Source: an uncultured Candidatus Saccharibacteria bacterium
GTDB taxonomy: Bacteria; Patescibacteriota; Minisyncoccia; Phycocordibacterales; UBA9973
Assembly (NCBI GenBank): GCA_964401705.1
Contig: CAYNZJ010000001.1
Location: forward strand, 3,648 to 67,647
Length of the DNA: 64,000 nucleotides
Direction: 5' to 3'
Shown here piece after piece: positions 1-57,322 of this stretch. The notes below the pieces were generated by a model, which saw nothing but the letters and a program-made list of their open reading frames with translations, made no database searches and was not told where the DNA came from. How positions within the stretch are numbered: position 1 is the stretch's first letter; every line of letters begins with the position of its first letter. The translations under genes were made by a program, and so were the position numbers.

Positions 1-4
1 TTTA

Positions 5-1267
5 ATGTATGTATATTATGATATTGGTGGTAAATATATAGTAGATTCAATGGATATGTTAAATGGTGGTGAATTTTTATATGAAAATATATTTACTGAA
101 CAATGTTATAAATGTAAATATTCGCAAAATTCAATAGAATGTTCAGAATGTAATTTTATATATGATTGTAAAAATTGCATAGAGTGTTTTATGTGTACTG
201 GTTTAAGAAATAAGAGATTTTACTTTAAAAACAAAAAGTATTCAAAAGAAGAGTATTATAAAATACTTGAATCTTATTCTTTAAATACAAGAAATGGTGT
301 TAAAAAAGCTCGTATTGAGTTTGAGGAAATTAAAAAAAAACAAATAAGAAGATGTTTCAATATTATTAATTCATACAATTGTAAAGGAGATTTATTGTTT
401 AATGGTAAAAATTCACAATTTTGTTTTAATGTACAAAGGCCAGAGGATTCTAAATGGATAGAAAATTCTGATACTCCAAAGGATTGTTATGATTTATCCA
501 CGGGCGGGGAATTAAATTTTTGTTATGAAGGAATAACACCAGATCATTCATATAAAAACTTATTTGGAATATTTTCTTGGAAAAACCAAGAAGTTGAATT
601 TGCTCACCATTGCCATTCTTCTAAATATTTATTTGCTTGTGCAGGATTAAGAAATTCTGAATATTCTATTTTTAATAAGAGATATTCTAAAGAAGAATAT
701 TTTGAAATGATAGAAAAAATCAAAAAACATATGGATGATATGCCTTATGTAGACAAAAACGGGATGGTTTATAAATATGGTGAATTTTTACCAGCAGAGC
801 TTTCTTATTTTGGTTATAATGAAACCACCGCTAATCTACATTTTCCTTTAAATAAAAATCAGGCATTGGAGAAAAATTTTTCTTGGTCAGATTTAAATAA
901 AAAAACAGTTGGCCAAGAAACCTTGGAGCAAAAAGACATACCAGATGATATTAATAATGTTGACGAAAAAATTTGTAACGAAATTCTTAAGTGTGTATCT
1001 TGCGATAGAAATTATAAAATAATTTATAATGAATTTGAGTTTTATAAACGCTTGAATATACCAATACCAGAAAAATGTTTTTACTGTAGACAAGAAGACC
1101 GATTTAAATTAAAGAATCCATATATTCTTTGGGGTAGAGAATGTATGTGTAATAAGAGTATTCATGGACACGAAGGTATTTGTACTAATCAATTCGAAAC
1201 TTCATACTCCCCAGATAGACCAGAGATAGTTTACTGCGAAAAGTGTTACCAGCAGGAAATTGTTTAA
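5..1267 (+). CDS. Cys-rich multi-zinc-ribbon repeat protein, paralog A (ORF runs to window edge; 5' end probably outside window)
   Basis: Shares the module C-x-x-C..FxCxGLRNxxYxIFNKxYSKEEY and the C-terminal zinc ribbon ..CxxCDRNYKI..FY..L.IPIP..C..CRQ..RF....PDRPEIVYCEKCYQQEIV with the next two genes. Confidence 0.5.
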   Translation: MYVYYDIGGKYIVDSMDMLNGGEFLYENIFTEQCYKCKYSQNSIECSECNFIYDCKNCIECFMCTGLRNKRFYFKNKKYSKEEYYKILESYSLNTRNGVKKARIEFEEIKKKQIRRCFNIINSYNCKGDLLFNGKNSQFCFNVQRPEDSKWIENSDTPKDCYDLSTGGELNFCYEGITPDHSYKNLFGIFSWKNQEVEFAHHCHSSKYLFACAGLRNSEYSIFNKRYSKEEYFEMIEKIKKHMDDMPYVDKNGMVYKYGEFLPAELSYFGYNETTANLHFPLNKNQALEKNFSWSDLNKKTVGQETLEQKDIPDDINNVDEKICNEILKCVSCDRNYKIIYNEFEFYKRLNIPIPEKCFYCRQEDRFKLKNPYILWGRECMCNKSIHGHEGICTNQFETSYSPDRPEIVYCEKCYQQEIV

Positions 1268-3050: not shown

Positions 3051-4754
3051 ATGGAAAACCAAACAAAACAATGTCAATTTTGTAAGAATGATTTCGTTAT
3101 TGAAACAGAGGATTTTGCATTTTATGATAGGTTAAATGTCCCAGCACCAACTTGGTGCCCACAGTGTCGTTTTCAAAGAAGACTTAGTTTTTTAAACTGG
3201 CATAGTTTGTATAAAAGAAAGTGTGACAAATGTGATGCATCAATGATATCAGTACATCACGAGGACAAACCCTTCAGAGTATTCTGTAATCCATGTTACT
3301 GGAAAGACGATTGGGATGGTACCGAATATGCTATGGACTATGATCCTAATCGCAATTTCTTTGAACAAATGCTAGAACTTCGAAATAAATCAAATTATAT
3401 GGGGCAAGAAACATTATATTCTACTTTACAAAATACCCCATACGCTAATGCAGCTGCATACCAAAAGGATTGTTTTATGATATTTAATGCCGACTATGGC
3501 GAGCGTTGTGTATATAGTACATCTTATGCAAATTTAACAGAAAGTTTAGACACTTATAGGACAAATAGCAGTGAACTTTGTTTTGAATGTGTTGAAGCTT
3601 ATAAATGTTTTAAATGTATTTATAGTGAAAATATAGAATCATGCTCTAATGTAATGTTTTCAAAAAATTTATCTGGTTGTACTGATTGTTTCGGTTGTAT
3701 TAATTTGCGTAATAAAAATTATTATATTTTTAATCAAGAATATAGTAGGGAAGAATACAAAGAAAAAATAAAAAGTTTTAATTTAGACACACAAGATGGG
3801 GTAATAAATATGCTTGAAAAAGTTAAAAACTTTTATTTAACCCAACCATATCGTGCAACTATTGGTAATAGTATGAATTTAAATACAACAGGGGATATGG
3901 TATATGAATGTAAAAATGTCAAAAATGCTTACCAGGTTAGTAATACTGAAGATTCTAGATATATTCAAATGTTAATAATGGGGCCAACGAAGGATTGTTA
4001 TGACTATACTGTATGGGGTTATGGTGTAGAGAAATTATATGAATGCTTAACAGTAGGTGAAGGAGCATACAATACTCATTTTTCTGCACAATGTTGGCCA
4101 GCTGCGATTGAAAATGAATATTGTATGTACACAATACAATCTAAAAATTGTTTTGGTTGTGTTAATTTAAAAAGAAAACAATATTGTATTTTAAATAAAG
4201 AATACAGTAAAGAAGAATATGAAAAACTTCGTATCCAAATAATTGATGATATAAAAAATAATCCCTACATAGATAAAAATGGCCGAAAATGGAGTTATGG
4301 AGAATTTTTACCAATAGATTTATCATCTTACTCTTATAATGAAACTGTAGCTAATTCTATATTCCCACAAAATAAAGATTCAATAATAAATCAGGGTTAT
4401 TCTTGGTACGAAACAAAAGAAAATAATTATACTACGACTTTAAATAAAAACGATATCCCAAAAACTATTAATGAAACAACTGACGAGATTTTGGTAGAAG
4501 TTATGGAATGCAGTACTTGCCATAGAGCTTATAAAATAAATGAACAAGAATTATATTTATTACATAAACTAGGAATGCCAATACCATATGACTGCTGGAA
4601 ATGTCGACAAAACCGTAGATTTAAAATCATAAATCCACCAAAACTTTACAATAGAAACTGTGCTAAATGTAATAACGAAATCATTACATCTTATGCTCCA
4701 GATAGGCCAGAAATAGTTTATTGTGAAAAGTGCTACCAACAAGAAATAGTTTAG
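3051..4754 (+). CDS. Cys-rich multi-zinc-ribbon repeat protein, paralog C
   Basis: Same architecture as paralogs A and B. Ends PDRPEIVYCEKCYQQEIV, the same tail as paralog A. Confidence 0.55.
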   Translation: MENQTKQCQFCKNDFVIETEDFAFYDRLNVPAPTWCPQCRFQRRLSFLNWHSLYKRKCDKCDASMISVHHEDKPFRVFCNPCYWKDDWDGTEYAMDYDPNRNFFEQMLELRNKSNYMGQETLYSTLQNTPYANAAAYQKDCFMIFNADYGERCVYSTSYANLTESLDTYRTNSSELCFECVEAYKCFKCIYSENIESCSNVMFSKNLSGCTDCFGCINLRNKNYYIFNQEYSREEYKEKIKSFNLDTQDGVINMLEKVKNFYLTQPYRATIGNSMNLNTTGDMVYECKNVKNAYQVSNTEDSRYIQMLIMGPTKDCYDYTVWGYGVEKLYECLTVGEGAYNTHFSAQCWPAAIENEYCMYTIQSKNCFGCVNLKRKQYCILNKEYSKEEYEKLRIQIIDDIKNNPYIDKNGRKWSYGEFLPIDLSSYSYNETVANSIFPQNKDSIINQGYSWYETKENNYTTTLNKNDIPKTINETTDEILVEVMECSTCHRAYKINEQELYLLHKLGMPIPYDCWKCRQNRRFKIINPPKLYNRNCAKCNNEIITSYAPDRPEIVYCEKCYQQEIV

Positions 4755-8781: not shown

Positions 8782-8971
8782 AAAATCGGCTCCCCACAAT
8801 GTGAGGAGCCTCGGGGGCCTGACGGCCACTGGTAAACATAGTATACACCCTTTCAATGAAATTGAAAAGTGGTACTGTGGAAATCTCAACAAACACTAGC
8901 TAACTCTAAACTGGCTGTAAGCCGAAGAATCTGCTATTCATAAAATTTCAAACAACTTAATATTTTAAAAA

Positions 8972-10426: not shown

Positions 10427-10524
10427 CAAAATATGGTTTCATATGGTTTTATATGAATTAATATGTGTTGAATATCAGGTAATTATAATTTTATTGCCAT
10501 AAATGAAACCAAATAAAAGTAATA

Positions 10525-40553: not shown

Positions 40554-40913
40554 TTAATTATTTTTAGTATCGGTATCTTCTAAATGTATATCGTGATAAG
40601 AGAGTTCTCTTATGGATTGGATGTCGTTTTCTTTTCTACTTTTTTCCTCATCTTCACTATTTACTAAAGATCGTAAATATTTTTTTGATTCTTTGATAAG
40701 CCCATAGAAAGAAAAAACTACAGAACCAATAACACATATTAAGAATACATATTGTGGTGCATTTATTTTATCAACAAGGAAATTCCCAAGGAAAAAGCCA
40801 CACAATACAGGAAATGCAATCCAACCAGAAAGACTTAATCCAAAACCTAATTGCCTAGTCATTATGCCTTGCTGTTTTTGTTTCTTATCAATGTTGTTCT
40901 TTATATTGTCCAT
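40554..40913 (-). CDS. AtpZ/AtpI-like small membrane protein upstream of atpB
   Basis: QLGFGLSLSGWIAFPVLCGFFLGNFLVDK resembles the AtpZ pattern; first gene of the operon. Confidence 0.45.
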   Translation of the reverse strand: MDNIKNNIDKKQKQQGIMTRQLGFGLSLSGWIAFPVLCGFFLGNFLVDKINAPQYVFLICVIGSVVFSFYGLIKESKKYLRSLVNSEDEEKSRKENDIQSIRELSYHDIHLEDTDTKNN

Positions 40914-40914
40914 G

Positions 40915-40987
40915 TGCGTGTACTTGGAATCGGACCAAGGACCTCTGTCTTATCAGGACAGCGTTCTACCACTGAACTATACACGCA
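40915..40987 (-). tRNA. tRNA-Ile(GAU)
   Basis: Reverse complement folds as GCGTGTA-TA-GTTCAGTGGTAGAAC-G-CTGTC-CTGATAA-GACAG-AGGTC-CTTGG-TCCGATT-CCAAG-TACACGC-A. T-loop has C at position 55. No encoded CCA. Confidence 0.7.
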
Positions 40988-41040
40988 TGTTTAGATTACA
41001 ACTATAATCTTTTTCATTATATTTATTACATCACCATTAC

Positions 41041-41090
41041 TCGCCCGTCCAAAGCCTTGGCGTCGGCGGGCCACTGAACTATACACGCAT
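41041..41090 (-). repeat. duplicate of first 18 nt of tRNA-Ile 5' end fused to GC-rich hairpin element
   Basis: Reverse complement of 41073-41090 is ATGCGTGTATAGTTCAGTGG, then gcccgtccaaagccttggcgtcggcgggc. Confidence 0.5.
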
Positions 41091-41266
41091 AAAATCTATA
41101 ATTAATAGATTCTAAATAAACAAAATTACACCAGCAGAAATTCCACTGGGCGCCTAAATTATAGCAAATTTATGCTTTTAAAGCAAATAAAAAGGGCTAA
41201 ACCAATTAATTCTAGGTAGCCCTTAACTTTATAAATTCATAATAATCCGCATTATTGGTACCATTT

Positions 41267-43222: not shown

Positions 43223-43280
43223 AACCCCCTCTTAATCTCCCCCTTCTTAGGGGGAGATGTCCGCAAGGACAGAGGGGGGG
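43223..43280. repeat. GC-rich nested palindromic element (family A)
   Basis: aaccccctcttaatctcccccttcttagggggagatgtccgcaaggacagaggggggg holds three nested dyads. A partial copy is at 50455-50490. Confidence 0.55.
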
Positions 43281-43291
43281 TACTGTATTAG

Positions 43292-56815: not shown

Positions 56816-57322
56816 TTAAACTATTTTATACGCCCAGTGGAGCAAGGCTTGGCGTTGGCGTGGGCGACACTGCGTGTCGCCCACGCGACAGTTCGCTTGT
56901 ATTTGGCCAATATGTCGGCGCATCGCCTTCCACCTTTTTATTTGCCTTGCGTCTTCATCTGGTATACGGCGCCCCATATAGTACCGACAATACCATTGAA
57001 ACCAGCCCCTAGGGTCTTCTTTATATATCCAACCCTTGGCCCGCCAAACCGACAATGGTTGCGATGCATTTACTTTAAAGTAATTTAAATTTTTCTCGCG
57101 TTTGTCCCCCTTTGCAAACTTGGCTTTTGTAAACCAATCTTTTGGGAATTCTTTACTGCAGTCACGCATATAAACACCACCAAACACACCCATGGATAGC
57201 ATTTGTTTAGGTGTAATATTTGGTTTAAATTCTTTATCAAAATTTTTACCTACAGGCTCGGTTAAAAAATATACATAACCTTTTTGCATTTTGTCGTTTA
57301 CTGTAACCTTTTTTGATTTCAT
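56816..57322 (-). CDS. hypothetical protein whose C-terminal ~35 aa are encoded by a GC-rich repeat region
   Basis: ORF. The 3' end 56819-56923 lies in the GC-rich palindromic sequence gggcgacactgcgtgtcgccc. Confidence 0.3.
   Translation of the reverse strand: MKSKKVTVNDKMQKGYVYFLTEPVGKNFDKEFKPNITPKQMLSMGVFGGVYMRDCSKEFPKDWFTKAKFAKGDKREKNLNYFKVNASQPLSVWRAKGWIYKEDPRGWFQWYCRYYMGRRIPDEDARQIKRWKAMRRHIGQIQANCRVGDTQCRPRQRQALLHWAYKIV
56829..56905. repeat. GC-rich hairpin element (family B: AAGGCTTGGCGTyGGCG...)
   Basis: gcaaggcttggcgttggcgtgggcgacactgcgtgtcgcccacgcgacag. Perfect stem GGGCGACAC/GTGTCGCCC. Similar to 41041-41072. Confidence 0.4.

Follow-up and report, generated by a model that had tools for sequence, protein, structure and literature searches.

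A strain-specific 102-bp insertion in the 5' part of a tRNA-Ile gene and its probable relation to the conserved 3' end of another gene

The tRNA-Ile gene examined here carries a recent, strain-specific insertion of 102 bp, consisting of 82 nt and the second copy of a 20-mer, between tRNA nucleotides 18 and 19. The GC-rich part of the 82 nt is, as judged by sequence alignment, probably homologous to the 3' coding end of a gene for a 168-aa protein, and the C-terminus of that protein is itself ancestral and native. As to origin, the reading we favour, with a probability of roughly 0.45, is a one-off microhomology-mediated templated insertion and not a mobile element.

The insertion and its genomic setting

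The window, by which we mean the whole 64-kb stretch of DNA that was analysed, has a GC content of 32.5% and is densely packed with housekeeping genes, including those for RF-1, L31, the atp operon and AlaRS. Its sole tRNA gene, according to ARAGORN and Rfam, is that for tRNA-Ile(GAT), which is surrounded by the genes for RF-1, L31, a membrane protein and the atp operon (Table 1). Since the 3' end of the tRNA abuts the ATG of the AtpZ-like ORF, its position implies co-transcription with the ATP synthase operon, of which atpB and the remaining genes (Pfam ATP-synt_A, alpha subunit) lie downstream of that ORF. The contact between the mature tRNA end and the ATG (40913-40914) is found likewise in two related loci (L008 and L024). 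From the sequence we infer that the TTGCTT/TATAAT pair upstream of the tRNA acts as the native promoter.

Some further observations concern this upstream region. The arrangement TTGCTT-17-TATAAT is invariant upstream of tRNA-Ile in six lineages (window 41131-41186, minus strand; L005, L006, L008, L011 and L024) and is followed directly by a conserved box, TTAGGCGCYYAGTGG, then by a variable hairpin and a T-run. The tRNA-Ile-atp leader thus composed resembles a terminator or attenuator, with weak RNAalifold support from the six sequences. Further upstream, between the gene for a 292-aa protein and the tRNA promoter, L005, L011, L024 and L008 contain a small hydrophobic ORF of 80-87 aa. In the window this ORF has undergone an internal deletion of about 200 nt, and all that is left of it is the start (ATGG) joined to the final ~25 nt (41225-41262, minus strand); together with the 102-bp insertion this makes two separate indels in one intergenic region of this strain.

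Table 1. Positions of the features discussed, numbered from the first nucleotide of the window.
Feature	Positions	Strand	Basis or remark
AtpZ-like ORF, 119 aa, first gene of the atp operon	40554-40913		start codon abuts tRNA-Ile 3' end
tRNA-Ile(GAT), intact	40914-40986	minus	ARAGORN; Rfam tRNA, 71 bits
Proximal 20-nt copy, part of the functional tRNA	40969-40988	minus	exact repeat
AT-rich part of the insert, 51 nt, 19.6% GC	40989-41039	minus	
GC-rich part of the insert, 31 nt, 74% GC	41040-41070	minus	folding, alignment
Distal 20-nt copy, orphan tRNA 5' fragment	41071-41090	minus	ancestral position, directly after the conserved leader
Promoter-like region and leader	41091-41186	minus	alignment; common to six lineages
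Conserved leader box GGCGCCCAGTGG	41143-41154	minus	
Promoter-like -10, TATAAT	41158-41163	minus	
Promoter-like -35, TTGCTT	41181-41186	minus	
168-aa ORF, widespread orphan family	56816-57322	minus	C-terminus native, conserved
3' coding end of the 168-aa gene, codons for QCRPRQRQALLHWA, starting with CAGTG	56831-56872	minus	probable template of the GC-rich insert part
13-bp perfect hairpin in coding sequence (codons R-V-G-D-T-Q-C-R-P-R)	56859-56885	minus	folding

The 20-nt sequence CCACTGAACTATACACGCAT, which in tRNA sense reads as 'AT' followed by tRNA-Ile nucleotides 1-18, forms an exact direct repeat with exactly two occurrences (none are expected from shuffled sequences), and the starts of the two copies are 102 nt apart. 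The preliminary description had recognised the upstream copy of the first 18 tRNA nucleotides, and the copy is indeed exact, but it begins 84 nt upstream of the tRNA 5' end; the distance of 54 nt given there is where the GC-rich block begins. That the distal copy leads straight into a GC-rich hairpin was also correctly seen: the GC block together with G41071 folds into an 11-bp bulged hairpin (41043-41071), with an energy of -18.5 kcal/mol on the tRNA-sense strand versus -14.6 kcal/mol on the antisense strand. There is no T-run next to this hairpin on either strand, which rules it out as an intrinsic terminator. The rest of the 82 nt between the copies, the 51-nt AT-rich part, includes a TATAAT (within 41013-41024) and a small hairpin, GATTATAGTTGTAATC (40994-41009). 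Scanning the insert with Rfam matched no family, and neither ARAGORN nor Rfam found a second tRNA or tRNA-like sequence in it. A repeat search of 40900-41250 revealed no inverted repeat pairing the ends of 40989-41070, so that the insert is without terminal inverted repeats. The minimum-free-energy fold of the region retains the tRNA cloverleaf and uses the proximal 5' strand for it.

The orthologous intergenic region was recovered from five related lineages, namely L005 (90% identity on the adjacent 292-aa protein), L011 (73%), L008-L010 (54%), L006/L007 (51%) and L024 (87% on the AtpZ-like protein). All five have an empty site, in which the promoter-like region and the leader starting TTAGGCGCYYAGTGG run directly into an uninterrupted tRNA-Ile, while in the window the conserved promoter-leader leads into the distal copy and the intact tRNA follows 82 nt further on. 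The empty sites identify the 102 bp as a recent insertion specific to this strain, and they bear out the earlier proposal of an insertion at the tRNA with duplication of its 5' end. The tRNA stays complete because the duplicated block spans its whole 5' part.

With regard to the reality of the insert, a repeat of 20 nt is also what an assembly error or chimera might leave, since 20 equals k-1 for k=21, a common de Bruijn setting. This explanation is rejected, and we consider it barely credible, since two Logan assemblies built independently from runs SRR10036058 and SRR10036065 (L002 and L004) extend across the region and show both repeat copies, both junctions and the identical 82 nt. The 292-aa protein adjoining the tRNA region is 100% identical on Logan assemblies from four runs.

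Two other intergenic regions of the window also have pronounced predicted structure. The spacer between L31 and RF-1 (43225-43285, minus strand) holds a nested double GC-rich hairpin (-37.6 kcal/mol, z -4.6), in which CCCCCTCT...AGAGGGGG enclose ATCTCCCCC/GGGGGAGAT, followed by TTTGTGTT; L006 and L007 have an ordinary, unrelated terminator at this place. A 190-nt intergenic region at 8782-8971 (plus strand) opens with two GC-rich hairpins and has a predicted energy of -47.9 kcal/mol (z -3.5). Rfam gave no match at threshold for 8782-8971, the best being uup RNA with 20.7 bits against a gathering score of 36.8, and the region may be an undescribed small RNA or leader.

The 168-aa gene and its resemblance to the insert

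The 168-aa protein has more than 8000 database homologs, with 73-90% identity and full-length coverage, the closest named ones coming from uncultured Pacebacteria-like (CPR) bins. It gave no match in Pfam, NCBIfam, PHROGs, PDB sequences or Foldseek-PDB. Members of the family occur in CPR-type bacteria, in phage contigs and in giant-virus contigs, and the protein contains four invariant cysteines (C55, C112, C145 and C152). So widespread and strongly conserved an orphan family is possibly of more value than the insertion itself.

The preliminary description had suggested that the C-terminus of this protein was derived from an inserted element. This suggestion is refuted by the conservation of the C-terminus. 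In 16 aligned homologs, residues C145, D149, C152, R153, Q156, R157, Q158, A159, L161, H162, W163, A164 and Y165 are invariant, giving the C-terminal signature C..GD..CRP.QRQALLHWAY. The same peptide is encoded through different, AT-rich codons in L022, L028 and L047, as exemplified by TGC AGA AGT AGG CAA CGA in L022 and TGT AGA CCT CGT CAA AGA in L028, whose locus has 46% GC. Homologs reaching residue 165-167 are encoded by 22 IMG/VR contigs, giant-virus MAGs included, and a strict search for the motif C..GD..CRP.QRQALL(H/Q)WA was positive in 12 of the 22, with locus GC contents from 31% to 65%. The AlphaFold model has a mean pLDDT of 70, and its confidence is highest in the C-terminal region, with block means of 83-88 (residues 111-150). 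The C-terminus is thus ancestral, native and under strong selection at the protein level, and the high GC content of the gene end stems from the many Arg, Cys, Gly, Pro, Ala and Trp residues in the peptide as well as from the codon choice of this lineage. For the 168-aa protein there is accordingly no element-derived C-terminus to annotate.

The perfect hairpin described earlier at this locus is real, but its extent is that of a 13-bp stem lying inside the last ~26 codons of the ORF. It has an energy of -27.1 kcal/mol (z -5.8) and is lineage-specific at the nucleotide level; it may be a selected nucleic-acid structure in this sub-lineage. As separate observations, the ortholog L018 (86% identical, ~10430-10470) keeps the 13-bp hairpin by a paired change from GTG/CCA to GCG/CCG, and the orthologs L019, L022 and L028 encode the same peptide without the hairpin.

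The two GC-rich stretches share an ungapped core with 15 of 17 positions matching (P = 0.0017 by composition shuffle). When gaps are allowed, the tRNA-side sequence CAGTG--GCC--CGCCGACGCCAAGGCTT--TGGAC-GGGCG aligns with the gene sequence CAGTGTCGCCCACGCCAACGCCAAGCCTTGCTCCACTGGGCG, so that the hairpin matches 56831-56872 at 30 of 34 positions with four small gaps. Against this fixed target, dinucleotide shuffles reached the gapped alignment in 0 of 2000 cases in three scoring schemes and in 1 of 2000 in the strictest. The gene end is also the best match of the hairpin in the 64-kb window, where 0 of 300 shuffled queries reach it: the observed score in the whole-window search was 33, compared to a mean of 23.0 (sd 2.1) and a maximum of 30 for the shuffles, corresponding to a Gumbel P of about 1e-3. 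The relation between the two motifs claimed previously therefore goes beyond chance, and probable homology is how we read it. It should be underlined that chance alignments of the hairpin score 28-31 in DNA of 61-65% GC, for which reason we call the homology probable and not proven.

The window's own 168-aa gene scores 37, versus 27, 21, 14 and 16 for the four orthologous genes fetched; considered as better donors, L018, L019, L022 and L028 were rejected because they all score below the window's own gene. GC-rich viral loci with higher scores were rejected as donors as well, their matches lying outside the gene and being due to chance. Since the gene end is ancestral, the alignment, if it reflects homology, means that the gene must have acted as donor and that the tRNA-side hairpin was derived from it.

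The alignment opens with CAGTG, which corresponds to tRNA nucleotides 13-17 within the tRNA fragment (D-loop context TTCAGTGG). On the gene side, CAGTG (GCAGTGTC) is located at the boundary between loop and 3' arm of the 13-bp perfect hairpin, just 5' of the homologous block. This microhomology requires a 2-nt gap and has a chance probability of roughly 0.004. Relative to the gene, the insert copy shows 4 small deletions and ~4 substitutions, and these differences lift the stability of the hairpin from -9.5 to -18.5 kcal/mol, an effect matched by just 0.03% of equally large random mutation sets. Such a bias points either to template switches that perfect a palindrome or to selection on the hairpin. 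A perfect 20-mer beside a GC block that is ~20% diverged also indicates that the present gene copy was not copied both faithfully and recently; either the copying was error-prone or the copy was reshaped, or else another homolog was the true donor.

Origin of the insertion

Searches for further copies of the insert and for possible donors were negative throughout. Neither the 64-kb window nor 115 kb of related loci contained a second copy of the 82-nt insert or of its hairpin, the junction 26-mer was absent from the genome contigs collection, and a protein-based genome scan for donor or sister copies found nothing. The hairpin 23-mer was absent from the metagenome contigs, and the hairpin 18-mer and the tRNA 18-mer from the viral contigs; BLAST of the 82 nt against phages returned only chance AT-rich matches. 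A search of the metagenome contigs for the tRNA 18-mer followed by a non-T gave only chance coding matches and one interrupted tRNA. As no third copy turned up in the window, the fetched loci, the metagenome contigs or the viral contigs, the GC-rich element family put forward earlier falls away, leaving nothing to catalogue as 'GC-rich element family B'. A Pfam scan of about 20 of the window's 74 ORFs of at least 100 aa, among them all that flank the tRNA, revealed neither an integrase nor a transposase domain.

For the 51-nt AT-rich part, no relative was detected in the sequence following the 168-aa gene, and no significant one either among the fetched loci or in the window, where 79 of 200 shuffles did as well; an exact 16-nt match at 4550-4565 does not extend. 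A decayed tandem duplication was rejected as the source of the 82 nt, since comparing them with the 110 nt upstream, with the leaders of the relatives and with tRNA nucleotides 19-73 plus downstream sequence gave no significant similarity. One AT-rich match of 15 of 18 positions (4 of 500 shuffles) was lost after allowing for 12 tests.

One contig (L014, LSQX01307503.1, positions 1-88, minus strand) was observed to hold a tRNA-Ile-like sequence with the same first 18 nt, which is normal through the anticodon loop (…CCTGATA) and then gives way to AT-rich non-tRNA sequence for the 70 nt up to the contig end; ARAGORN calls no tRNA there. As the interruption coincides with the canonical 37/38 intron position, either an intron or truncation of the gene could account for it.

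For the templated insertion that we favour, the order of events can be outlined as follows. A nascent strand would have left the tRNA gene at CAGTG(G), the join being made at the CAGTG common to the tRNA D-loop and the gene, and would then have copied the GC-rich gene end, on the same strand and 15.8 kb away. The first ~31-35 ectopic nt would thus come from the 3' coding end of the 168-aa gene or from the copy of a close relative, and the 51 AT-rich nt that follow from a further source. Re-entry 20 nt behind the exit point would have generated the direct repeat, leaving 82 ectopic nt and the re-copied 'AT + tRNA nt 1-18' as 102 bp inserted between tRNA-Ile nucleotides 18 and 19. The process was most likely microhomology-mediated template switching or illegitimate recombination, which fits the CAGTG microhomology, the same-strand template 15.8 kb off and the re-entry by 20 nt. 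The donor gene, the microhomology mechanism and the neutrality of the insertion are what we infer from this anatomy.

A different source is envisaged if foreign DNA was captured by homology-facilitated illegitimate recombination, an established term. Here a fragment of a related bacterium, comprising a decayed 168-aa gene end, a 51-nt spacer and tRNA-Ile, would have entered by homologous recombination within the tRNA and by an illegitimate join at CAGTG(G), the 20-nt repeat being donor tRNA sequence. Capture of this kind explains why a diverged GC segment stands alongside an identical tRNA part, supplies an origin for the 51 AT-rich nt and agrees with the layout of the insert, which is that of an intergenic module leading from GC hairpin to TATAAT to tRNA; 'AT' also precedes the tRNA in three relatives. 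Nevertheless, a tRNA adjoins the 168-aa gene in none of the fetched homolog loci checked, no donor appeared in the metagenome or viral scans, and of the genes compared the resident one matches best. The invariant LLHWAY residues are moreover found in no reading frame of the insert, meaning that the donor would not have been a functional gene, and overall we regard foreign capture as rather unlikely, though it is the chief competitor of the reading we favour. Distinctly unlikely, in our view, is a scar of a tyrosine-recombinase element that integrated in the D-arm of tRNA-Ile through a 20-bp core and was later deleted almost entirely, leaving attL, 82 nt and attR. The perfect 20-bp repeat does hold part of the tRNA gene and restores that gene, and like a core-type site it ends in the D-loop between the D-stem halves GTTC and GAAC. 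However, site-specific integration does not fit the absence of an integrase from the ~20 ORFs scanned (no transposase domain was seen there either, including in those flanking the tRNA), the mere 82 non-coding nt of cargo, the duplication of the 5' part of the tRNA where integrases that target tRNA genes typically duplicate the 3' part, or the lack of another tRNA-5'-fragment junction in the metagenome contigs and of the 18-mer in viral contigs; it also leaves the similarity to the 168-aa gene unexplained.

That similarity, like the flanking direct repeat and the empty sites of the relatives, could be accounted for by a small non-autonomous MITE- or REP-like element with a long target-site duplication that had also inserted in the end of the 168-aa gene. 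Yet the gene C-terminus is ancestral and invariant across >8000 homologs and 31-65% GC, only two 'copies' exist, one of them being coding sequence, and transposition does not fit a single-copy insert that is without terminal inverted repeats in itself, without further copies in the collections scanned and flanked by a 20-bp repeat. MITE and IS target-site duplications are typically of fixed length, 2-14 bp, which the 20 bp far exceed in the case of most families, and no transposase was found among the ORFs scanned; this origin is highly improbable. The hairpin and the orphan tRNA fragment might instead be a selected leader element of the tRNA-Ile-atp transcript, serving stability, processing or attenuation. 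This would suit the strong bias of the differences from the gene towards a more stable hairpin, the greater stability in the transcribed sense, which is owed to G-U pairs, and the location within a conserved promoter-leader unit. Its presence in one strain only, five related lineages doing without it, and the lack of an Rfam match speak against such a function, and hairpin perfection can arise mechanically through quasipalindrome template switching, which makes a selected leader quite unlikely. A combination of both ideas, namely a gene fragment copied into the tRNA-Ile-atp leader and reshaped there into a stable hairpin by selection or by palindrome-perfecting switches, is in our estimate very unlikely; if true, it would show a REP-like or regulatory hairpin element just as it is being born from a gene fragment within a reduced CPR-type genome.

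Returning to a one-off templated insertion, its consequences for the cell are probably neutral. The absence of the insert from five related lineages means that no function is required. Read-through from the native promoter is expected because the hairpin is without a U-tract, and RNase P would cut at the intact tRNA 5' end and discard the lengthened leader. As a mutation the insertion is of an ordinary kind, though its location is unusual, and outside this strain it is of little consequence. It does provide a clean, bracketed case in which an essential single-copy tRNA gene survived a templated insertion because its 5' end was regenerated by duplication, and it indicates that illegitimate rearrangements of the microhomology type occur in small AT-rich genomes such as this one.

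Comparison with known systems

A GC-rich palindrome in an AT-rich genome, with one instance in coding sequence, recalls the Rickettsia palindromic elements, the GC clusters of yeast mitochondria and REP or MITE sequences. Those elements are multi-copy and absent from orthologs, whereas the coding instance described here is present and invariant in all orthologs. REP/BIME sequences in particular occur as many dispersed copies together with a RAYT transposase, in contrast to a hairpin that is single-copy in the window and 115 kb of related loci. The att sites of integrative elements and prophages in tRNA genes are alike in that the repeat holds part of the tRNA and the gene is reconstituted. Such tRNA-targeting elements usually repeat the 3' part of the tRNA; here the 5' part is repeated, the cargo is 82 nt, no integrase was seen and there is no second example.

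The rise in hairpin stability from -9.5 to -18.5 kcal/mol resembles quasipalindrome correction, in which changes turn an imperfect inverted repeat into a better hairpin, although the change here accompanies an ectopic copy and did not occur in place; selection for an RNA hairpin would yield the same pattern. The closest parallels, drawn from general knowledge, with the mechanism read from the anatomy of the insert, are templated insertions of the FoSTeS/MMBIR type and bacterial short-patch or homology-facilitated illegitimate recombination. The donor match in our case is short and diverged, unlike theirs, but the probable ectopic copying, the 5-nt CAGTG junction, the short duplication left by re-entry behind the point of departure and the single-copy, lineage-specific occurrence are features that the insertion in tRNA-Ile has in common with them.
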